From assembly GCA_976226885.1 (NCBI GenBank), contig OZ320319.1:26350001-26414000 (forward strand): a stretch of DNA of 64,000 bases, in the 5' to 3' direction. The DNA is from Iphione sp. A-MEVVRFRX5 (lineage: Eukaryota). The notes beneath the pieces are model-generated. The model was not told where the DNA came from. It saw nothing but the letters and a program-made list of their open reading frames with translations, and searched no databases. Positions 2,301 to 51,632 of the stretch are shown one piece after another. The number at the start of each line of letters is the position of its first letter. The stretch's first letter is position 1. A program made the translations under genes and the position numbers.

Positions 2301-4240
2301 AAAAAGAATCACATTTTACGCACGAATTAGATGGTTGTCAATCTCTTAATAATAAAACTGCCGGTAGCTTACCTGATGGAAGAGTGATATATCATCCAAA
2401 GTATACTCACCTGTTCAATAAAAGAGAACTAGGTTAAGCATGTATTAAAGCAACAGACGCAGACAAGAATCAGTATGAAGTCTGATAAATCATAAATGTG
2501 CTGCCACGCTTAATCAAAGGATATTTCTCACAGTGATCAAAGTTCTCACAGCTGCAAGAGCTAAAAGTAGAAGGATACATTATTAATCTGCTCTTTGATA
2601 TTTCTGCAATTAAAATAAGATTTGATTTTGTACTGTGTGGTATTCTCTGTGAATTCCTACTGGTACAGTCTTGTGTATTAATCTATTCTAAAATGAAATT
2701 ACGTATGTATTATCAGGTGCTTTTGTTCTAATTTATTCGCCGGTCTCTCCGGCATATGTCTTTTTTATGTATTGCGTTTATAATTTATTCAATGAATACT
2801 GAGTTACCTATTACTCATTTAATTTATTTGATGATCTCTTAGACATGTATGTCTTTAAGCAATAAATGTTTAAATTGTTCAATGAGCTCTGAGTCCTTTA
2901 TTAATATTTTCATTTCTTCTTAAATCTCTTATTGCTAATTGCATGTAGGTTCTTTTTATATTTACTGGAAGTGCATCAGTGTATGCATATAAGAGAAGTG
3001 AATAAATTCTTTGCTATTTCCAATTACATTTTGTTTCAGCAATTAGCAACAAGTGAATTCCACATAGCTTTGTCCCAAAATGCAACATTGCTTAAGAATG
3101 CACAGAATCTCAGAAGAAAATACATGTAACTCCGTTGCTAATGACGCGATTCGCTCAGGTTTCGTCTAAGTAAAGTTAAGATAGTAAATCAATTCTTCCA
3201 TTATTCTAGGCAGCTGCCTTACAATCTCGCAGGTGGCCAATATCCCTTCCCATTAAAAATGAAAAGATATGATGTCTGCATGTTATTTCTCAGTCTATAG
3301 AAAAGGGCCGGTGCTCAACAAAACGGCTGTTGTCATGTCGAAATCTGGACAATTTAATTCAATACATTAACGTTTCATGACACTCACATTTCATATTTAT
3401 GATTTTTACATCCGATCATCTTTTTCTCCGCAAGGCAGAGCCAGATTTTTACCTATGAGGAAATGTACACTGGGTATCACAATATATATAAAAGAACATA
3501 TTGTGCATTTGCGTGTCGTTTATAAAAAAACCCGGAGCGCTGGTTTTGAAAAAAAAGGGCTAGTATTTCACAAAGGATGCTTTGTTATCACTTTCTTTAA
3601 GGTATGCAGTGTCACTATTTCCATTAAAAAAGACAGCCATAGGGAGACCAGAGAGACATGGCGTGATAGAAACTTTAACGTAGTATAGATGCAGTTATTT
3701 TACTTATAGTTTATTATATATGTATGTTACATACATAAATACATACATACATACGTTTGCAATTCAGTGGATGTGTCGTATTGAACACTGATGAAAGATA
3801 CCAATATTGCCGTCATTTTAGGATATCGCAAAGTAGTTCATTCCTGTAACTGGCATAACCAATGCGAAAACCACTACGAAATTTACGTTTGCAATTTCCC
3901 ATCAAAATGATTTCTATTTAAAAGGACTAAACATCAGGTATTATTTGCCTTTCCTTCATAGCCATCGATTAACAATTCATGACAATTTGAAACGCTCTTA
4001 AGAGGTTGCAAGACTTCTCATTTGGGAAATGGTTGGATTTTTTAAGGGAGAAAAAAGCCCTTGAGAACACGTTATGGCGGACAAGTTCTTCGTCATTTCG
4101 CATGAGTTCCTTGGGAAATAACGCCAGTCGCAGATATAAACACAACGGATGGAGTTAATTTGAGTCCTCATGAGACACAACTGCTTTTCGGTATATTCTG
4201 AGGTGAACAGGTAGCTTGAACATCGTTTTCCGATCTTCCC

Positions 4241-4558
4241 GAATACAAATACCTTGGACTAATAATTGATTGTGAGCTGACAATGAAAAACCATGTAACA
4301 TACCTAGTCAAAAAGCTATCGACTCAATCCTATGTTATATCCAAAGTACTACACTCCATAACAGAGGCAGCAACCCTGACAATTTTTAAGGCATTTATGA
4401 TACCACTCATAGACTATTGTAGTGCCTTCATCAGCTGCATACCAATATCATTTATGTCCAGACTACAGTCAATACAGGATCATCTATTGCATATTATTCA
4501 TGAGGAATTCAAAAATAACTCTCATAAATCGACAGATGAATTACATTCTTTCTATCAT
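4241..4558 (+). pseudogene. Decayed non-LTR retrotransposon (CR1/L2-group LINE) ORF2 C-terminal fragment, 5' part, interrupted by the Ngaro element
   Basis: Translates as EYKYLGLIIDCELTMKNHVTYLVKKLS...IFKAFMIPLIDYCS...RLQSIQ, matching the YLG...H...K...Y...P.L.Y...LQ..Q pattern downstream of LINE RT cores. Confidence 0.75.
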
Positions 4559-4674
4559 TGCTCATATACGTGCTAAGTAAATAATTGACTCAACCGCAGG
4601 ATGGAGTAAACACTTTTAATCTCACCCCGAACATGCAAGAATTGAGTATAAATGAAATACATGCAAAGAGAGCC
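4559..4674 (-). repeat. Split direct repeat B2 (116 bp), 3' terminus of the element
   Basis: Identical by eye to 4874-4989. Carries ATTAAA on the element strand (forward TTTAAT 4615-4620), a candidate poly(A) signal. Confidence 0.95.
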
Positions 4675-4740: not shown

Positions 4741-4873
4741 AAACCAACACGAGTGAGAGAGAGGGCGAAACATGCGAAAGCATGGTATTTATAGTCCCTC
4801 AAGAGGGAGGGGGGGGTAACTAGGTGAGGCGCCCTCTCTCGCAATGACTCACCACCCCAGGTGCCGCCACCAT
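4741..4873 (-). repeat. Split direct repeat A2 (133 bp)
   Basis: Identical by eye to 8967-9099 and directly abuts B1. Confidence 0.95.
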
Positions 4874-4989
4874 TGCTCATATACGTGCTAAGTAAATAAT
4901 TGACTCAACCGCAGGATGGAGTAAACACTTTTAATCTCACCCCGAACATGCAAGAATTGAGTATAAATGAAATACATGCAAAGAGAGCC
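4874..4989 (-). repeat. Split direct repeat B1 (116 bp)
   Basis: Identical by eye to 4559-4674 (offset 315). Begins 16 nt after the recombinase stop codon. Confidence 0.95.
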
Positions 4990-5005: not shown

Positions 5006-6007
5006 TTACGCATCCTGCAGCGATTTGACAAGAATGTTAGCTACAGTTTGAGCTTGATTGACATGTATGTAGTCGCGGAAGGCATTCGAGGCCCAATTGC
5101 CGAAAGCCTGAATTTGTGGCGTATCGCAACCTTTCATAAAAGCAAGAGTGGCGCCAGAGCGCCTGAGACTATGCAGCGAGTAGGCATCTGGTGATAGACC
5201 GAGATATTGTATAATGTCTCTGAACTGGGCGTTTAACCACTGCGCGGTGACTGGAGATCCATCGCGTTGGTTGACCAGAAGCGGTTGCCCAGGGCGAGAG
5301 GTCGGAGTCGCCTCCAGCAGACGTCGGAAGGCGCGCACAACACACAGCATTGGATCGGGGGCTCCAGGAACTCGCAGGTGGCGCCCTTGATCGTAGGCTT
5401 GAAGGGTCTTGGACCATTTTTGTCGTACGATCAGCACCCCATGGTGGATGTGGACGTCCTCCCTCGTAGTGTGCCGCGAGGGGTCGAACTCTCGGACCGT
5501 ACGGGGGGCAACCTCTGATTGTCGGTAGCCTGTGTAAAATAAGAAGAGAAAAGAGAATTGAAGGACCACTCCAGCCGGCCTGGCGAGGGTCATCTCGATC
5601 ACACGGCGAAAGGTCGCAGGGTCCAGCGGAAGGCGTCGTTGTACCACGTGGAGCTTGGACCTGCGCAGGGCGTCAAGGGCCAGCCGTGCCGGCCTTCCCT
5701 GGAACGCAGACTCATCGATGCCCTTATCGCGGAGGAATTCCCTCACGGCCGATATCGCATTGCCCACGGAGCCTGGCGAAGACATGTAGCTGGCTAGGTA
5801 GCGGACATACATGGCAGCCTGCATCTCCGAGGGGCGAAAGGGATCGACGCCGAATCTGCAGCAAAAGGCGAGGTAGGCGACGGCAGCAGCTCGCCGATTG
5901 GCCCGCGTGCCAGGCGCCCGTGCAGTATGGACCAGCTGGACGGCATCCGCCATGAGTCGGCGCTCCACTGGATCTAGATGAAGAAAAACAACTAAATATC
6001 GGGCCAC
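5006..6007 (-). CDS. ORF3 tyrosine recombinase (lambda-integrase family) of the Ngaro element; first ATG at 5953
   Basis: Catalytic set: R in FYTGYRQSEV, K in QKWSKT, H-x-x-R in YSLHSLRRSGAT, W in FGNWAS and Y in FRDYI. An N-terminal helical region is present (TRANRRAAAVAYLAFC). The ORF-track start is GTG. Confidence 0.95.
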   Translation of the reverse strand: MARYLVVFLHLDPVERRLMADAVQLVHTARAPGTRANRRAAAVAYLAFCCRFGVDPFRPSEMQAAMYVRYLASYMSSPGSVGNAISAVREFLRDKGIDESAFQGRPARLALDALRRSKLHVVQRRLPLDPATFRRVIEMTLARPAGVVLQFSFLFLFYTGYRQSEVAPRTVREFDPSRHTTREDVHIHHGVLIVRQKWSKTLQAYDQGRHLRVPGAPDPMLCVVRAFRRLLEATPTSRPGQPLLVNQRDGSPVTAQWLNAQFRDIIQYLGLSPDAYSLHSLRRSGATLAFMKGCDTPQIQAFGNWASNAFRDYIHVNQAQTVANILVKSLQDA

Positions 6008-7833
6008 AGCTCACTGAGATCAGGCACGACCCGGTGGAGGGAGTCGGCAGCGATAAAATCCCTGGCCACAAAGCGATAGCGTGGGTGGGTGTACCAACGG
6101 GAGAGCGCGTCGGCCAGGACCATGTCGCGCCCTGGGACATGTTCGTACATCAAATGGATCCCCATGCGCGCTTGATGAAGCCACAGGGACCGAGCGCACG
6201 CCAGCAACACAGGATCCCGCCCCCGCCCGTTCTGATACACCTGTACCGCCGCCATATTGTCACAGTGGACGAGCACACACTCGCCTGGCTCCACATCCGT
6301 GGCAAAAGTGCGGACAGCTATCATGACATTCGCCGCCTCCAGCTGTGTGATGTGCAGCTGTGAGAGCTCCTCTGGAACCGGAAGGGCGTAGAACCGGCGC
6401 CCGTCGGTGGCGCCGATGCCATCCAGGCATGCATCGGCTAACACCGTGCGGGCCACCTTGCGCTGACCTAGGATGGCGACCCCGTTCCATTCTGCTAAGA
6501 AATCAAGCAGCCATCTTAAGTCTTTCTTCTGTTCTGTTCCCAGTCGCACATACCTGCCTTTAAGACCACGGAGAACATCTAGTAGGCGATTAACAAAGAG
6601 ACGCGCGGGCCAAACACACCTACCGACGTGGAGCACCCGGCCAATGATGCTCTGGAGCTCCTGCTTCGTGATCGACCTACGCTGGGATACCCTCTCGATC
6701 TCTCGGATGGTTTCGGCGAGCTTAGGCGCGGGGATCGATACCGTCATGTCCACCGTGTCGACCCGAATGCCCAACCACTCCACGCTCTGGGCCGGCGGCT
6801 GGGTTTTTTCCATGGCCTCCGGTAGCCCGAGCTGCGCCAGGAGATTCCTCGTCCACCTGAAAGCTCTGTCCGCCTCTCGCACGCCCTTGGCTGCAACAAC
6901 AAGGTCATCAAGGTACATATGTCCTATTATCCCCTCTCTTCCCAGTATACGGATGATAGCGTCAGCCAGCCTCTGCATATGGTTAGAGGAACATCTACTG
7001 CCGAAAGGAATGCTAGTATCGACATAGTAGGAGCCGTCCCATGCGAATACCAAGAGGGGCCAGTCTAGCGGGCAGGATGGGAAATTTTTATAGGCCCTAG
7101 CGATGTCAATGGTGAAGAGAAAGACATCGCTATCCAACCGGCGAATTTGGGCCAGAAGAGCATCGACGGTGGGTAGTGAGTGATCCCTGTTGACCCCCAG
7201 CACCATGTTCTTTGCGACAAAGGCGTTTACAGAGGCCTGGGGGGGGTACGACATATCGGTAATGATGCGGCGGGCATTCGACTCCCTTTTAGGACGCGAC
7301 ATCAGGGGAGAACAATGGGTCCATGGCGTGAAGGGTCTTTGTGGAAAAGGGCCCTTCAATGCACCCATCTGCAGCTCTTTATTGATGTATGCATACACAT
7401 GATCAGGGTAGCGAGTAGCGGACGGATGATTAGGTAGATCCGCGGTATCAGACGCGGGCCCCAAGTACCCGATAGGGAAGCCAAACCTGACCAGGTCCAG
7501 TAACTGGGGGTCCGCCGAATCGACTTGCAGGTAATGACGCCATGCTTCGAGCTGTAGGCCTGATTGGAGGGCCACCTTAGCGCCTATTACATTGGGGTAG
7601 CCATTACTACGGACCAAATCATATATGAGGATCATGTCTACCGGCAGCACGTTATTATCGGCAGTCGGCCAGTGGGACCTCCTGTGTGCAGCAAGAGAGT
7701 GTACATCACAAACCCCGGTGAAGTCAGGTTGCTCCTGTGAGCATTGAAGCCTTACCTCATCAAAGTCAATGATGTCCGTTGTGTGCGGTGTCTTGCTCCA
7801 TGCTCGAGTGGCCACCTCGGGCATGGACGTCAC
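5992..7833 (-). CDS. ORF2 reverse transcriptase + RNase H (pol) of the Ngaro element
   Basis: RT motifs LFTIDIARAYKNF, SIPFGSRCS, HMYLDDLVV and EWLGIRVD. RNase H motifs LADACLDGIG, ITQLEAAN, VHCDNMAAV and LADALSR. The ORF-track start is GTG and the frame is open from 7947, overlapping gag in the -1 frame. Confidence 0.95.
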   Translation of the reverse strand: MTSMPEVATRAWSKTPHTTDIIDFDEVRLQCSQEQPDFTGVCDVHSLAAHRRSHWPTADNNVLPVDMILIYDLVRSNGYPNVIGAKVALQSGLQLEAWRHYLQVDSADPQLLDLVRFGFPIGYLGPASDTADLPNHPSATRYPDHVYAYINKELQMGALKGPFPQRPFTPWTHCSPLMSRPKRESNARRIITDMSYPPQASVNAFVAKNMVLGVNRDHSLPTVDALLAQIRRLDSDVFLFTIDIARAYKNFPSCPLDWPLLVFAWDGSYYVDTSIPFGSRCSSNHMQRLADAIIRILGREGIIGHMYLDDLVVAAKGVREADRAFRWTRNLLAQLGLPEAMEKTQPPAQSVEWLGIRVDTVDMTVSIPAPKLAETIREIERVSQRRSITKQELQSIIGRVLHVGRCVWPARLFVNRLLDVLRGLKGRYVRLGTEQKKDLRWLLDFLAEWNGVAILGQRKVARTVLADACLDGIGATDGRRFYALPVPEELSQLHITQLEAANVMIAVRTFATDVEPGECVLVHCDNMAAVQVYQNGRGRDPVLLACARSLWLHQARMGIHLMYEHVPGRDMVLADALSRWYTHPRYRFVARDFIAADSLHRVVPDLSELWPDI

Positions 7834-7842
7834 TCGTTTTTT
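7797..7842 (-). promoter_or_regulatory. Putative -1 programmed ribosomal frameshift signal (A_AAA_AAC + 8-nt spacer + stem-loop)
   Basis: Gag frame reads tcA AAA AAC gag tga. The heptamer is at 7842-7836. A -1 slip enters the pol frame. Hairpin UCCAUGC-C-CGAG/CUCG-A-GCAUGGA at 7827-7797. Confidence 0.7.
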
Positions 7843-8951
7843 GAAGCAGCTTGCACAGTAGCTCGTGTGTTGGCGTCCCGCTGGGCAGCCGGAGGCTTCT
7901 GAAGCGTTGAAGGAAGCTGTTGCGTCTGCTTCTGGATTTGGTTGTACCTAGAACGCTTGGTGCATAGAGAATTAGCATGTGGGTGGCGGGCGCCATTGAT
8001 AGCATGACAGAAAGCGCACACGTGGATGAGGCGAATGCTACCTTCTTTGTGGAATTCTTGCTTGACCGGACAGTTGCCGGCACTGAATTTACTGCAGACT
8101 ACCTCCACCTGGGCGTCCATGTGATCAATCGGAGCCATGCTTACCAGTAACCGTTCATATGCAATTGCCTGATGGTCCCTCCATGACAGCTCATTTCGTT
8201 CGAGTTTATCGAATATATTATTAGACCATTTAAGGACGTTTTTCCATGGGCGACGCTGAGCGTCCTGGCAAACCTGGTGCAAATGCTCAAACAAGTAATG
8301 TCTATCATGGGGGGAGACAGAGTACTCATCCTTTAGCATAGCTAGGAAGGCTGTAACATACTCATGGAAGGTAATGTTCTCCCTGCACTCGCTACGCTGC
8401 CTTGCTGTGGCACACCCTTCTCTGTCTATGTACATAAAGGGTCTAGGGACAATAGACCTAATGCGAAAGTCGACATTACCTCGTGGTAGCTGGTTGGAGG
8501 TCCATGGCGCCGGAGTTTCCATATAGTTGTCAATGAACTGTTGGACGGCGTGGCCCTGCCTTAGCTGACTTGGGTGCGGAAAATGCCCTTGCTGAATCTG
8601 TGGCCTCCCCATATTGTCCGTCTGTGAGAGAGGTGGTGTACGTGGCTGGCTCCAGTCTACCCGTCCTGCGCTGAAAAGCACGTTCGGTGCGGGGTCCGGG
8701 GTAGTCGTGACCGGTGGTGTTTCTGGCCGCGCTGCATTCGCCTGCAAAACATTTGAAATATCAGCAATTTGAGTTTTGAGTCCAGACAACTCACTCACGA
8801 CCCTTTCCAGCCTGTCGAGCCTGTCAACCATCCTCGGCTTCTTGCTATTTGTAGTTGTATTCTCGACAGTTTCAATGTCACTCGCATGCGTAGTGCCCTC
8901 CTCGTTCGTATCGTCGTTGCCGCTACCGGCGGGGTTTTTCTTCGGGCCCAT
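7830..8951 (-). CDS. ORF1 gag-like protein of the Ngaro element (373 aa from MGPKK) with a C-terminal Cys/His zinc-binding region
   Basis: ORF track 7830..8999. The ATG at 8999 lies inside the A1 repeat only 20 nt from the TATA box, so the ATG at 8951 is the more likely start. Contains a short coiled-coil-like stretch (DRLDRLERVVSEL), the HLHQVCQDAQRRPWKNVLKWS helical block, and CSKFSAGNC...H...HVCAFC...H...C. Confidence 0.85.
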   Translation of the reverse strand: MGPKKNPAGSGNDDTNEEGTTHASDIETVENTTTNSKKPRMVDRLDRLERVVSELSGLKTQIADISNVLQANAARPETPPVTTTPDPAPNVLFSAGRVDWSQPRTPPLSQTDNMGRPQIQQGHFPHPSQLRQGHAVQQFIDNYMETPAPWTSNQLPRGNVDFRIRSIVPRPFMYIDREGCATARQRSECRENITFHEYVTAFLAMLKDEYSVSPHDRHYLFEHLHQVCQDAQRRPWKNVLKWSNNIFDKLERNELSWRDHQAIAYERLLVSMAPIDHMDAQVEVVCSKFSAGNCPVKQEFHKEGSIRLIHVCAFCHAINGARHPHANSLCTKRSRYNQIQKQTQQLPSTLQKPPAAQRDANTRATVQAASKNE

Positions 8952-8966: not shown

Positions 8967-9099
8967 AAACCAACACGAGTGAGAGAGAGGGCGAAACATG
9001 CGAAAGCATGGTATTTATAGTCCCTCAAGAGGGAGGGGGGGGTAACTAGGTGAGGCGCCCTCTCTCGCAATGACTCACCACCCCAGGTGCCGCCACCAT
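8967..9099 (-). repeat. Split direct repeat A1 (133 bp)
   Basis: Identical by eye to 4741-4873, including the G8 run. Confidence 0.95.
9012..9019 (-). promoter_or_regulatory. TATA box (TATAAATA) in repeat A1, probable element promoter
   Basis: Forward TATTTATA at 9012-9019. Followed on the element strand by a pyrimidine-rich initiator-like stretch and the gag ATG 68 nt downstream. Confidence 0.6.
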
Positions 9100-11968: not shown

Positions 11969-12185
11969 TGGGAGAGTTATCGTAGTTGGCAAGAGTGCTG
12001 GTATCCTAATCCAAAGGTCCCAGGTTCAACTCCCATCCTGAACTGATTACGTCCGGACACTGGTAGACACAGGCCCAGTCCACACACCTTCTGATACCAC
12101 AACCCCCAGTCTCGCAGTGCACGGCACGCCACATAGAGACAGGGGTATGCGGTCCTGTCAGCCAAGGGTATTCTGGCAAATAATC
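11969..12185 (+). mobile_element. Probable tRNA-derived SINE
   Basis: A-box-like TAGTTGGCAAGAG at ~11983 and B-box GGTTCAACTCC at 12023-12033, spaced as in a tRNA with an anticodon-loop-like TCCTAA between them. No complete cloverleaf. The 3' boundary is uncertain. Confidence 0.4.
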
Positions 12186-23127: not shown

Positions 23128-25044
23128 TCCCCCAACAGCACCCGCCGCCGCTCAGGGATGATTCTTTTCATTACATGTCACCCTTCGATTTCTTCCTCGG
23201 GAATTCGCCATGGGTCAAAGTAACTCTGGTGATTCGTAAATGAATTTTCTCGAATCTTTGATGGTTCTCTATGTACAGCTATCCTTTAATGCCTGGTGGG
23301 TTCCCTTCTTTCACTTGCCGAAAGTGTGTTGGGATTCTTCATTTGAAGTGAGTGACTATTCCGTGATACTCCCGCCCTCTCCTCCACTAATGCACCCGTA
23401 GGATTGTGGGTAACTAGCTTGGAATATTTGATGGTCTTGGTCGAGAGATAATGCCTTCCAAGGTGTCCCAGCGGATGTGTTTGTTAATTAACCCTGGCGT
23501 CTGCATTTGCCGTCATAAAGAGAAATGTCAGCATGCTGCGGTGCGACAAATACATTAGAGATGGCAACGCCCATCGCTTTGATTGCGAGCGGTGCTGTAA
23601 TCCAAACTTGGTTATTAAGCTGGGTACGTTCTCTAACCTGACAATACAACTTTCTTTCCCGTCTGGAAATATCACGTCAGCGATGCTTCTTTTAACCAAG
23701 AAGTCAGTGAATCGTGCTTGACAGTGAATACTCCAATGCAATGAAAAGGCAGCTGTGAATAGCAGCACAACCAGGGGGAAATTATGACCTTATTAAATAA
23801 CACGATTCCATTGTCTGTCGATTATTGTGCGGAACAATAGAGGCTGGTCGATTATTGATTAAGGCAGGGAAAGTCTAATGCGCCTTAATAATAAACACAT
23901 TGATTCATGGTGGGAGGAACCTCTTCCAAGTTCCCTCGCCTGGTCCTATGCCATCCATCACCCCTCGGAAGGCCAGGAAGCTGAGGAGATCTATGGACAA
24001 AAGACTCTTGCAGGATTTATTGCCGCGCTAATCCCTCCTCCTCCCCCCTAACTCTCAGTCGCCTAGCTACATCCTAGCGCTGAAGCAATTAGGGCTTAAA
24101 TTAACTTTGAATTCTTGTGATCATCAGCCATAAAAAATAAGAGCTATGATAGGAATTGCATTGCCCTACGGGATGCGAAACCGAGATGCAGGACGGGCGT
24201 TTGTATACAGGCGAAGAAGACTGGCTTATCAAAATGTATCAGCAGGAGTCAATCTTAGATAATCTTCTATGAATAATCTGCGGTTGATTTTGTTTCTTTA
24301 GGTTTACTACAAAATGCAACTGTGATATTCCATATACCGTTTGGTCATGAATATGCTGATAAACAGATGATTAAATTTAAGCTCTCTATCCAAATATGTC
24401 AGCAGTCTCTGGCAGACAAGTACACTCTTCTCAGGGAAGCTATTTTTTTTTTCAAACAGCGGCAGCAAAGCCAATGTATCACAAAGCTTATAAAACAGGC
24501 GCGTGTAATAGCGCTTCGACAGAGAGATAAAAGACGACGCCAATATGCCGTGACAGGCGGCTGTTGGTGATCAAATGAACTCAAAATCCAATTGGTGTGA
24601 CCCGATTCCTGTAGGAAAATAGTGAGCACACACCATAAAGATCCGTGATGGAGATGTTTAGCCACTGTATTGATGCTATTTGAGTGGCCAGTGATATGAA
24701 GCCATGTGGAGTGTCTTCAATGTATACGAAGAATTAAGATGAAGGAGGGTTGCAAGAAAGTCCTCTGTTCCAGGGAGACAAACGTCTTACATGAGAAAAA
24801 CTGGTAAAGGCTTCATGCATTAAAGGTGAAACCTCTGACAATGCCATAGAAATTCCATGGAAAGCATATTCATAAGGATAATATATGGTTCAAACGAAGC
24901 ATTTCACTGTAAATGAATAGGGGATAATTTGTAAGAATTAAAAAGAATAAATTTGCAAATGTTCTCCATGCAAGTGAACACGGAGATATCCCCCATGGCC
25001 CCCGCTTTAATCATTCTAAAAAGACAACAGTATTAATTGATCTA

Positions 25045-25220
25045 CAGTGGAGTCTCTATTTACGACCACCACTTGGGACCAAGCTAAAATGGTCTTATTG
25101 TGAATTTGGTCGTAAATGGAGTATCAAATGTATAGAAATCAATATTTTGGTACCCCTCTCAGCTGGTCTGAAATTGAGAATGGTAATAAAGTGATGTGGT
25201 CGTAAATAGAGACTCTACTG
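25045..25220. mobile_element. Tc1/mariner (pogo/Tigger-like) MITE, 176 bp, TA target-site duplication
   Basis: TA|CAGTGGAGTCTCTATTTACGACCAC ... GTGGTCGTAAATAGAGACTCTACTG|TA: 25-bp TIR with one mismatch, TA at 25043-44 and 25221-22. Confidence 0.9.
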
Positions 25221-27356
25221 TATTTCCTTTTTAGTCATGTGATATCGAAGAGATCAAGATATTTTGGTGCAGAATATATTGCTGACAAGCAGAAAAATTA
25301 GAGAATGCTTGAAGTGGGTAAGTGCCAATTATGCTTTTAGATATGTGAAGATATAGAGAATGGAGAAAGAGACTGATGCAGAGCGATGACGAGAGAATGA
25401 GAGAAAGTGCAACAAAAGGTAAGACTGTTGGCTGGCAGAGTTAGAAGGAGAGAATGATACAGAGGTAAAGAGGGACGGAGCAACAGGGCTGCTTAAACGG
25501 TATAGAGCAAAATACGAATGGGTACATCTACCTGCAAGTAATACATCATGTGAGGACGTAATTGCAATTAGTGTGAGTTACACCAGGTAAGAGTTGTTTA
25601 GAATCGATATTGTCAGAATATTACTTAAAACTGTATTTATGTGTTTACTAAATCCATGTGTCATTCGAAATATCCAGGACTATTAACTGATAGGGTAGAG
25701 TTTTAAATCACCTTTAGATTTCGACGTATACATAGCAATTCATATACGTTATCTGCAGAAGTTTTGCAATTTGTCTAGTATCGTCCTTTATATTAGTATT
25801 TTTAATAACATATAGTTCAGTTAGGCCGTCTGTCATACTTGAGCCTACGTATAACCAGATATTGTAGTACGTTTGCTATTGGAATGACCATGAAGCCATG
25901 TTTTAGATAGTGACGCTACTGAAAATACTGTTGTATGTCAGGAGTAATTGAAAAATATCAGTTCCCTAAGTTTATGTGAAGAATTTACAATCCTTGAATA
26001 ACAAAAATGTAGTTGTGGAATGAGTTTGAGACGCTGGTGGTCCTGGCCACTAATTCAGACTTGCCAGCATTGGGATTTTCAATCTCAACCAGTGTAGTTC
26101 AAAACCTATCGGAGGTCATACGTTTTGCTCCATCCATTATACAAAAAAAAATGCCACATACTTGACCTTAAGTAAGATTAGTAACTACCATGGCTGATCT
26201 GGTATCATATCTTCCTTTACAGAATTCAGCAAGTGAGCCCAAGAACACAGGGGAGCCAGCCAAGGAAGCCTTCGGTATGAACATTCCTGATCTGATGCAA
26301 AATTCATCCATGAGTAAACATAATCTGATAAAGCCTTGATGCACTAACAAAACTTTAGAATATGCAAGTTTTATCTTTCTCTTTAGTTTTTTACTCTGAT
26401 ACAAAAACCTCGTCTTCACTTTGATAAGCTACCAGTGAAAGACAAGCGTCTATAGTGTAGCCTTAAAAGTCAAGTATAGTATCACCCCTTAAATGTCTCC
26501 GTAGAGTATAAAGTCTCAGATAGCATGGATTTTTACTTTGTGTGACAAGTTACAATGTACATTCTCTTCACATAATACATCATAACTGTATTTAGAACCT
26601 AGGTGAACTGCTCTCTGCGTTAACCAGCTCGGGAGTCAGGCCCATTTGTGTTAATCTTGACGGGGCCCAATGTAATTGATAATGTTTCCACACTCATACA
26701 TTCGGAACCAGTGGACCGATCTGACTAAAACACAGAGGTCAAACTTAACGTTGATTCTATAACTAACACCATTGCTTGTTTACGATTTTATTTGTTACCT
26801 GTTCAAATTAGCGTGCTGTTTGTTGGTGGGTTCCTGATTGGACAGTTTGCAGATGACATACATGTATCTGATCGGTGAACAGGATATCGGATTGGTACCA
26901 GGAAATTCATTTATGCAATAAATGTATATAGATGGTCCTATCTACACTCACTGAGTTGTTACCATTTGTTCTTTGGACATTCTCTGACTTCAAACAGTAT
27001 CTTCATTCTTCTTGGAGCTTTGGTGTATATATTAAGTGACCGATTAAGAAGCCTCATAGCAAGAGCTGCTGGTTGCCCACCAAAAGAAGGAGAAACTATA
27101 TATGTATTACGGAGACCATCCTAAGGTCCAGCACTCCGGACTGGGGAACTGAAAAGGGATTAAAAAATGTATAGACACAATGTTGAAGGTTTAAAAAAAT
27201 CTTAACCAGAAGCGTATATATTAAATATAAATAATTAGAATATCAAAAACCACATTTCCAGAAAACAATCACAAAATAGTCACATACAGAGGCAAGACTC
27301 GAAGTGACTAAATTTAGTTATTATAATTTGTAGCAGATCTCATCCTATGAATGACT

Positions 27357-27548
27357 AAAGTGGTATTTCCATGCATGTGGGTTAGGTGCAGATCCTCATG
27401 TGGATCCAGAGCAACCATATCCTTTTCCATTCTATCTGGATCAACATGCATGTCTGCACAAAATGTTTGTATGGAAACATTTCTATTAAAATACATGTGA
27501 TCGGACAAACCATGTCTGGAAGACCTCTGTGCATGGAAATACCACTTT
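27357..27548. mobile_element. MITE-like element with perfect 19-bp terminal inverted repeats
   Basis: AAAGTGGTATTTCCATGCA (27357-27375) pairs with TGCATGGAAATACCACTTT (27530-27548). An extra internal inverted pair GATCCAGA/TCTGGATC is present. TSD not resolved. Confidence 0.7.
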
Positions 27549-28274
27549 CGCCAGTGACAGCCACTTTTGAAATATTTCTTATGCATGTTCTCTGCGAAGT
27601 CCTCTTGAGCTCCACCGCCTTATGCCGCAGGCTATCAGGGGTATTGGAGTGAATTGCTGAAATTACTTTCTTACAGTAAAGATATAATTGGTCCTAAATT
27701 GAAGTGAGAACACAAAGTCATTGGAAGAATAATTTATTTAATTTATTCTAGCAGAAAATTATCAGTTAGACAGTCATTTAAGTACAACTTCACAAGATAA
27801 CCATGTATGAACCCCCGCTATTGTGCTAACTTCTTGTTGTCCAAATAGAGTTCATGTAGCCAAAGCTTTGGATTAGAAATAATGACTAGCTATAATACAT
27901 AGAATATATAGGTAACGGTGTACCGAAATGGATAGATTCAAGAGACCTGACACGTAGAGCTTTTCTCGTTTCAATACTTCGATGGTAGGCCATACCCAGT
28001 AAACAGAATGACAGTGAAACACGACTGCCCCTCAATCAAAACCGAAAGACCATTAGCAGTGAGGGAGCAGATCACAGAGATAAAGACGACCGCCCCTTGA
28101 TGTAAGCGACTGCACGATTGGCCAGCTACAAGGCGGGGATGGGGTTGGGGGGTGGGAGGGGACCTGGTGGCGCCGATATCCACCCTAGCGGCCATGCAGA
28201 AGACGTGTGACAGGGTCTCGAGTGGACGCATCCAAGCGTGCTGCGCCCCATGTATCCCAGGCTTGCTACTTACC

Positions 28275-31200: not shown

Positions 31201-32124
31201 TTACATGGTGATTCTACTGGCAGTAGAAAGGTTGTCAAGTTGCTTTCGATGTGATATCATTAATTCACCTATGGCCGTCAGTTAGTTCTGACAAAGCACC
31301 AGGATGCACTCCGAAATCCCTTATACATTAACTACCGACTACCAATTCTCCAAGACGATGACAGAAGTCCTGCCACTGCCCTGCCATCCCATCCGTTGTT
31401 TGTACATGTACATGCATTTCCTCTCTTATACATCTAACCTCATTAGAATAGCACTGGGGCATCCCACCCCTTGCCTATCATTCTTATTCATTGTCGGCTG
31501 GTGATTAAAGGACTAGCGGCTTGGCGCTTGCTCTCTGCTCCAGCAATCTATAGTTGTCATCTATGTTGCCCAGCGTCTCATTATCTCCAAGTACCGGCCT
31601 CTGTTATACACGAGTGGCATCATGTCCTGTCCGCCTGTGTATGTATGGCAGTTACTCTAAACACAACAGAATATCATCTATTTTCTTTCAAGAACAATGC
31701 CTTTTTTCGGACGCAGTGTTATACCAGATATGAATGTACATCATTCTTGATGCCTACAAACAACATAGAAAATATCCTACGTCGACAAATTACTTTTCGG
31801 GAAACATGCCGTGTAGTAGAGAACGCAATCACTCCAGGAACAACACAGCCCCGGAACGATGAGTAGCCTATCACCGACTTTATCTCAACGATGTGCCCAC
31901 GACATGGGCCCCATAAGAACTCTTTTTTCCCTAAACAATAAACCTACAAGATCTTTAAAGCAACCATATACAGATGCCATCACAAGTGTATGTTAGTTAA
32001 AGTACCTATATGAAACATGGCTGGAAAATAGTCCCGGCCCAGTGTATTGCGGAAATATTGCCCCCTTCCTTCAGAGATACTAAATATGCGGGTCTAAAAT
32101 TAGTCCCATTGAGACCGGTAAAGT

Positions 32125-32372
32125 AGAATTTTGCCACAAACAATAGCTAACCCGGAGAGTGAGAGACATACAGAGAGACAGACTCCAAATGAAAGTGCAG
32201 AAGGCTTGTTTGTTTAAAACTCCAAGTTGCATGTTTGTCACTTAAAGCAGAATTTTGCCACAAACAATAGCTAACCCGGAGAGTGAGAGACATACAGAGA
32301 GACAGACTCCAAATGAAAGTGCAGAAGGCTTGTTTGTTTAAAACTCCAAGTTGTATGTTTGTTACTTAAAGC
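32125..32372 (+). repeat. Recent tandem duplication, two copies of a 124-bp unit
   Basis: 32125-32248 versus 32249-32372; two C/T differences seen. Confidence 0.95.
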
Positions 32373-35605: not shown

Positions 35606-36091
35606 GGCCTGGTTTCCTTACATGCGACGCTGTCCATGTGCAATTCTCTGTTTGTCTGCATTTTTATCAATCACACTGATTTCAATGGGATGGTTTCCTT
35701 ACATGCGGTAGTTGTCCGTGTGCATTGCTATGCATTGACGTGCATTGCCTATTTTTTAACCGGGACTGATAATTTGCCGCACATGGATGGCAACGAACAG
35801 CAACGCACAGGTATTTCTTCACATTTCTTCACCTTTGACTAAGATTACCACACATAAGATTTTCCACACTTTTTCTCTTCATTTTTGCTGTTTTTTGTGG
35901 CTTATAGCATCATTTCTGTCCTTTTTTTTCATTTTTCCTGTCATTTCACGCACAACAACCCATGCACATTGAAGGACACCCCTGTGCGTTAATGTGCGGT
36001 AAAAAAGTACAATGCAAACAGACACACTGCAAATGCACACAGACCTCTGCCACAGCTTGCCGCACACCAACACATGTAAGGAAATCAGGCC
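35606..36091. mobile_element. MITE-like element (486 bp) with 21-bp imperfect TIRs, possibly PIF/Harbinger-derived
   Basis: GGCCTGGTTTCCTTACATGCG (35606-35626) versus CACATGTAAGGAAATCAGGCC (36071-36091), two mismatches. An internal copy of TGGTTTCCTTACATGCG lies at ~35691. Superfamily inferred only from TIR style; TSD not resolved. Confidence 0.6.
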
Positions 36092-51557: not shown

Positions 51558-51632
51558 AAAAAATGTGGGTTCGAGTTAAGGTATATATATACGAGTTATA
51601 TATATATACCTTAACTCGAAGCCACATTTTTT
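51558..51632. repeat. Near-perfect inverted repeat, 34-bp arms with a 7-nt loop
   Basis: AAAAAATGTGGGTTCGAGTTAAGGTATATATATA-CGAGTTA-TATATATATACCTTAACTCGAAGCCACATTTTTT; one mismatch. Confidence 0.95.

Follow-up and report, generated by a model that had tools for sequence, protein, structure and literature searches.

How retrotransposons of the DIRS order make their reverse transcriptase and recombinase from open reading frames (ORFs) that lack good start codons is unsettled. We address this question with a single Ngaro-type element, recognized by its repeats and the order of its ORFs, that occupies positions 9099–4556 on the minus strand of a 64,000-nucleotide (nt) stretch from Iphione sp. A-MEVVRFRX5 (assembly GCA_976226885.1, contig OZ320319.1, forward-strand positions 26,350,001–26,414,000; this whole stretch is the window, and coordinates below count from its first letter). 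The element very probably reaches its reverse transcriptase (RT) and ribonuclease H (RNase H) by a −1 ribosomal frameshift on the heptamer A_AAA_AAC, which would give a Gag–Pol protein of 986 residues, and its tyrosine recombinase is quite probably made by splicing out a 2,506-nt intron, which would give a 479-residue fusion of the Gag N terminus (Gag-N) with the recombinase. The combined plan, in which one promoter would serve three proteins (Gag, frameshifted Gag–Pol and spliced Gag-N/recombinase), is likely. The original prediction, made from the letters of this copy, had proposed the frameshift; that part is supported by the comparisons below, yet the picture was incomplete, for it overlooked the conserved splice by which the recombinase is likely produced.

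The gag–pol junction of the window copy (like all features of the element, on the minus strand) matches the earlier description point by point. The gag frame ends TCA AAA AAC GAG TGA, which places A_AAA_AAC in the zero frame at 7842–7836; an 8-nt spacer (7835–7828) contains the GAG codon and the gag stop TGA, and is followed at 7827–7797 by a hairpin with 11 Watson–Crick pairs, one C–A mismatch and a 7-nt loop (−17.2 kcal/mol), the predicted frameshift stimulator. The pol frame (RT and RNase H) lies exactly −1 to gag and is open from 7947 to 5992, with a match to RVT_1 (E = 3e-12) and a predicted entry at 7836; it has only a GTG as start (7833), and its first ATG (7824) lies inside the stem. 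The arithmetic of the predicted fusion also holds (372 + 614 = 986 residues). From this copy alone, the evidence for a frameshift signal is moderate: the chance of finding some slippery heptamer in a 39-codon gag/pol overlap is about 6%, and the z-score of the hairpin depends on how the sequence is cut (cuts of 33, 56 and 131 nt give −3.3, −2.6 and −1.1, respectively). Only by comparison does the junction signal stand far above chance: the motif recurs in 103 of 109 loci, when the background frequency is 0.02 per 160 nt.

For this comparison, a pol query of the genome gave at least 109 scored loci—the window copy and 108 relatives at 48–64% identity, all of which were fetched—that form 91 families at 80% pol identity (median pairwise identity, 53%). 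Four-fold-site identity among 61 stop-free family representatives had a median of 0.27, that is, these sites are saturated, and fixed codons are thus not explained by shared ancestry. Family-level counts use 76 representatives with the heptamer in phase and pol open from the heptamer; 15 families were dropped because the site was missing, out of phase or followed by an intervening stop. As the heptamer columns were selected in this subset, the counts over the 109 loci are the unbiased ones. A hold-out set comprised 53 loci picked by recombinase rather than pol, 38 of which had a pol N terminus as anchor (the set includes two near-duplicate pairs and three loci at least 84% identical to the first set). 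A quick tree of 89 rows covered families of the source genome.

The slippery site is kept across the lineage in sequence, phase and context. In those 103 loci, a run of six A's followed by C or T precedes the first conserved pol motif by 40–200 nt; it is in the phase that makes pol −1 in 99 of them and ends in C in 101, and the hold-out loci gave the same picture (35 of 38 with the motif, 34 of the 35 in phase). The six loci without the heptamer comprise two with unrelated junction sequence, one with A_AAA_AAG and three with an altered run. Counted regardless of codon, gag-frame K-N-(D/E/stop) is written A_AAA_AAY in 97 of 100 cases, lysine being AAG 51% of the time in gag. The heptamer is directly preceded by C in 71 of 76 families and directly followed by G and then A in 74 and 76, respectively, with the gag stop 3 nt (one codon) after it in 58. 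Its distance to the conserved pol motif ranges from 57 to 174 nt with the frame kept, and the 5′ extent of the pol frame is variable (9–291 nt, with one outlier of 1,101), the frame needing to be open only from the heptamer. Lack of conservation in relatives had been named beforehand as grounds for rejecting the prediction; the heptamer, the frame and a stem at a 7–9-nt spacer are all kept, and in some 90 saturated families the conservation of motifs, frames and phases extends to the nucleotides themselves. Together with the agreement of the hold-out set (35 of 38), the conservation of heptamer, phase and stem makes −1 frameshifting likely. Individual loci carry natural variants of the site: L132, L177 and L179 have A_AAA_AAG, L139 has T_AAA_AAC, and in L131 the heptamer is immediately followed by a stop.

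A run of six A's could also act on transcription. Polymerase slippage of this type occurs in some RNA viruses, and if RNA polymerase II slipped on the invariant A6 run and added one A, minority transcripts would carry Gag–Pol in frame, since one added A gives the same frame as a −1 slip. Such slippage needs neither the X_XXY_YYZ phase (99 of 103) nor the terminal C (101 of 103) nor a stem at ribosome distance, all of which are kept, and we consider it extremely improbable as the source of Pol. Equally, Pol might be made with no ribosomal slip at all, either through a splice from the gag donor to an acceptor located before pol, or because translation starts anew at ATG 7824, the rival start named by the original prediction. 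In the window copy this ATG lies 5 nt past the gag stop and the gag/pol overlap contains one acceptor-like site; in addition, about 41 of 76 families end gag with TAG, a triplet that would formally qualify as a phase-1 YAG for pol. In 39 of 76 families, the pol frame has its first ATG only past the first conserved pol motif, and 49 of 76 lack any pol-frame ATG between 60 nt upstream of the heptamer and that motif; initiation at ATG 7824 can therefore not be how Pol is made in general. As for splicing, only 18 of 76 families have an acceptor-like site in phase 1 for pol, at scattered positions, whereas the same rule finds 68 of 75 at the recombinase acceptor described below; the tract before the gag TAG is rich in A rather than pyrimidines, and the stop is TGA or TAA in other families, the window copy included. 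Neither splicing nor re-initiation accounts for a fixed heptamer, and either route to Pol is highly improbable.

Downstream of the heptamer, a stem recurs at a similar distance in most families, although its sequence varies. Helices of −8 kcal/mol or better starting 7–12 nt after the heptamer were found in 54 of 76 families, compared with 0–14 in 31 other bins, and mean predicted 5′-arm pairing reaches its maximum of 0.74–0.83 at 9–14 nt past the heptamer. The hold-out set gave a helix at this distance in 30 of 35 loci, against 3 and 1 in controls. When arms were swapped between families, the own downstream arm paired better (−15.7) than those of other families (−10.9), upstream and downstream controls being flat; the hold-out values were −15.8 and −11.1 (n = 29, five near-duplicates removed), and the 3′ arm of the window copy ranked first among 76 partners. 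A fixed 45-nt folding window gave a modest signal (z < −2 in 20 of 76 families versus 0–6 in controls), because loops vary; the helix scan was the more telling measure. A pseudoknot is not supported: in 65 families, a proxy gave −3.3 for own and −3.2 for swapped sequences. Rfam returned 0 matches for the stimulator.

Several observations weigh against the stem as a stimulator common to the lineage. The stem is weaker than −10 in 13 of 76 families, and in the window's own clade of 15 families 6 have strong stems and 9 have stems no better than swapped partners. Compensatory pairs were seen at 2 of 8 positions with no consensus structure and at 0 of 7 in three clade alignments, and stems of different clades are too divergent to align. 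Stem sequence is clade-specific, and that of the window hairpin is private to a single-copy family, which qualifies the reading of this hairpin. The −1 slip could be real while the hairpin is not its stimulator, or not the only one: the C before and the GA(N)-stop after the heptamer would then drive the pause, and the stem would serve another end, for example masking a second donor-like splice site. The constancy of this flanking context and the 13 weak stems fit such a reading, as does a donor-like motif that falls within the 3′ arm of the stem in 31 of 69 families and forms the 3′ arm itself in one clade. Against this reading stand the spacing of the stem (of 68 families with a helix, 41 start it at a spacer of 7–9 nt and 52 at 6–10 nt), pairing that is partner-specific, and the window copy itself, in which the second donor-like site lies outside the stem. 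We judge it unlikely, and retain the frameshift with the stem as its putative stimulator.

The second donor-like site of the window copy, GAG/GTAAGG, lies after the gag stop at 7750–7758 (first GT base, 7755). A strict donor-like motif occurs 20–100 nt past the heptamer in 69 of 105 families, compared with 6 on the antisense strand; L033, L063 and L073 are among the relatives that have one. As a general route to a fusion of Gag, frameshift product and recombinase, this site was rejected, its phases being mixed (37:32); one guess is that it yields a spliced RNA coding for gag only. The motif is not accounted for by the three-protein plan and counts against it as it stands. An extended version, in which the three-way plan operates throughout a large Ngaro lineage and the stem of some clades hides the second donor and so couples the choice between splicing and frameshifting, is put forward tentatively.

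The recombinase appears to be reached by a different route, from a donor inside gag. In the window copy, a phase-1 donor GAG/GTAATG (8474–8482; first intron base, 8479) and an acceptor composed of a pyrimidine tract and TAG (5974–5991; last intron base, 5974) would delimit an intron at 8479–5974 (2,506 nt), the removal of which would join 157 Gag residues, one bridging codon and a recombinase exon of 321 codons (5006–5973; 157 + 1 + 321 = 479 residues). The donor AG/GTAA stands at a single gag column and in phase 1 in all 50 families with an open gag of at least 300 residues. Its glycine codon is GGT in 50 of 50 intact gags (GGT is used for 30% of glycines elsewhere), and the codon before it, which may stand for R, K, T or S, has A as its third base in all 50. 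Apart from these and the heptamer, every conserved gag column shows synonymous variation, and none of 144 conserved degenerate pol columns is codon-fixed. The donor motif was present in 97 of 103 heptamer-bearing loci, and the hold-out set had AG/GT in 36 of 37. Of 106 loci with a recombinase match, 102 have the acceptor AG at precisely the same position (73 of 75 families; hold-out, 48 of 53), where a pyrimidine tract and YAG lie just past the pol stop, in phase 1 and two bases short of the recombinase's first conserved residue. Beyond it, the recombinase exon is open for at least 300 codons in 40 of 49.

These signals bear on a different account, that the recombinase is made by a second frameshift from RT/RNase H, or from a start of its own, and that the splice-like signals are incidental. 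Frameshifting from RT/RNase H is the probable source of the Ngaro recombinase according to the view of Poulter and Butler 2015, as quoted in the available text of PMC13003380, and PMC3783388 notes that the frame of the fungal Ngaro recombinase can be the same or shifted. The window copy by itself would suit this account, with a −1 recombinase frame (open 6010–5006; Phage_integrase, E = 1e-7) that shares 19 nt with the end of pol, and with a recombinase ATG six codons past the conserved start. Across 51 families, the frame of the recombinase relative to pol is −1, 0 or +1 in 22, 18 and 11, respectively, rather than constantly −1, and an in-phase slippery heptamer was found in 0 of 21 −1 pol/recombinase overlaps. 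The recombinase frame contains a stop 30 nt or less upstream of the acceptor in 33 of 75 families, and its first ATG comes later than codon 10 in 39 of 75. Donor and acceptor are moreover fixed and phase-matched, which counts against their being incidental. A second frameshift or an own start is therefore very unlikely; in contrast to the quoted view, a splice from gag is what fits this lineage.

Other points speak against the splice, or against generalizing the plan as a whole. The window donor is modest, scoring 4 of 7 on a simple consensus scale, and the AA after its GT is also accounted for by a conserved asparagine. None of the 53 recombinase-picked loci was a genomic copy that had already lost the intron. 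Database searches gave no fused Gag-N/recombinase protein, a weak negative because only 8,000 candidates were scored. All comparative data come from one genome; metagenome scans (with a protein query and with an alignment query) and a viral scan found no relatives in other species.

The motifs suggest the following course of expression. A TATAAAT box read from the sequence inside repeat A1 (9019–9013) would give one RNA starting just upstream of the gag ATG at 8951. Unspliced, this RNA would yield Gag and serve as the genome; some ribosomes translating it would slip one base back on A_AAA_AAC by tandem slippage, paused by the stem, and continue into Gag–Pol, an arrangement that would keep RT/RNase H scarce and tethered to Gag. 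RNA that has lost the intron would encode the Gag-N/recombinase fusion. The modest donor may leave most RNA unspliced as genome, and the 157 N-terminal Gag residues common to the products would carry the recombinase into the same particle. No protease was found among the Pfam matches of the window element, so both fusions would likely stay uncleaved.

A −1 shift on A_AAA_AAC is familiar from the gag–pro junctions of mouse mammary tumour virus (MMTV) and human T-cell leukaemia virus (HTLV). The window copy has the same heptamer, a short spacer, a downstream structure and the next ORF in −1; unlike in those viruses, the shift would lead straight into RT/RNase H without a protease, into a fusion likely left uncleaved, and the putative stimulator is a simple stem with a family-specific sequence. 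Spliced subgenomic RNAs are likewise established, in the gag RNA of Drosophila copia, in foamy virus pol and in retroviral env. As in these, an incompletely spliced internal intron would set protein ratios and the unspliced RNA would be the genome, whereas the splice predicted here would fuse the integration enzyme in frame to Gag residues 1–157 and leave out RT/RNase H. [quoted passage not shown] Neither DIRS nor Ngaro nor tyrosine recombinase is mentioned in the first 300,000 of the 449,034 characters of PMC5009743. No mechanism for Pol in Ngaro elements is given in the available portions of PMC8547959, PMC3783388 and PMC4157794, and neither a gag–pol shift site nor a gag–recombinase splice for DIRS or Ngaro elements was found in the accessible part of the open literature, which included PMC6681497, PMC7192593, PMC4495291, PMC9210276 and bioRxiv 10.1101/2021.01.25.428050; an earlier mention in Goodwin and Poulter 2004 or in Poulter and Butler 2015 is possible.

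If the splice is real, Ngaro annotation would change, the recombinase being a second exon rather than a free ORF, and the three-way plan would overturn the view of recombinase by frameshift for these elements. The −1 mechanism itself is textbook, which limits the surprise. For both enzymes, the lineage gives exact predictions that place the shift and the splice at named bases, and it offers some 100 natural variants in which one heptamer is combined with differing stems.

The three coding regions differ in how readily they are recognized. The gag-like ORF1 (373 residues, ATG 8951 to TGA 7832–7830) has a Cys/His-rich C-terminal part and is 28–52% identical to 45 relatives, with invariant Cys/His columns; its N terminus reads MGPKK or MPPKK in several relatives. 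No Pfam family was common to more than 2 of 46 members, none matched the window copy and no database homologue was found; the ORF is named gag by position. In pol, D/E/D/D residues that we take by their motif to be those of RNase H are kept in at least 90% of 51 families, with no Pfam match for RNase H. Pol ends about 40 residues past the last of the RNase H aspartates, and its length from the IDF motif is 586–595 residues in 49 of the 51 families. In the recombinase exon, R150, H267, R270 and Y301 were assigned by motif position and are presumably the catalytic residues, as in the family at large.

The window element is a young Ngaro-type tyrosine-recombinase retrotransposon. Its layout, A1–ORFs–B1A2B2, shows the split direct repeats of the Ngaro plan (A1–gag–RT/RNase H–recombinase–B1A2B2, as given in the available text of PMC8547959 and also of PMC3783388 and PMC4157794), with the gag-like ORF, RT/RNase H and tyrosine recombinase in that order on one strand. 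As in Ngaro elements, no methyltransferase, protease or DDE integrase was found; the lack of any Pfam match to a methyltransferase domain in the window element separates it from DIRS1 and PAT elements. Repeat A1 at the 5′ end (8967–9099) and A2 (4741–4873) are 133 nt long and 100% identical, as are B1 (4871–4989) and B2 at the 3′ end (4556–4674), each 119 nt; B1 and A2 have a 3-nt ATG in common. Both split repeats were detected in 62 of 76 families. ATG also stands at both ends of the element, and in the B1/A2 overlap in 41 of the 44 families in which that overlap measures 1–8 nt, an arrangement that fits the circle-junction integration model proposed for DIRS1-like elements (available text of PMC3266345). 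The frameshift junction DNA of the window element is single-copy in the 1.18-Gb genome.

At the insertion site, the element interrupts a short ORF (4220–4576 on the plus strand, and from 9100) that by eye resembles the end of a non-LTR retrotransposon pol and has no Pfam match. The trinucleotide CAT is common to both element ends, and there is no target duplication longer than this. At least 91 distinct families of the lineage share the genome, mostly with one or two copies each among the loci scored, and terminal repeats are 98–100% identical in many of them, so many young low-copy families coexist. One clade (L033, L043, L056, L057, L060, L063 and others) has a pyrimidine tract ending in TTTCAG about 30–70 nt 5′ of the gag ATG, which could be an acceptor or a transcription-start signal. 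Elsewhere in the window, a stretch at about 11980–12050 on the plus strand looks tRNA-like by eye and is a possible head of a short interspersed element (SINE); ARAGORN reported no tRNA in the window. Pairs of inverted repeats of 27–34 nt lie at 25043–25222, 27345–27560, 35606–36091 and 51558–51632 and resemble small non-autonomous DNA transposons or hairpins, and a 124-nt tandem duplication, 98% identical, lies at 32119–32366.

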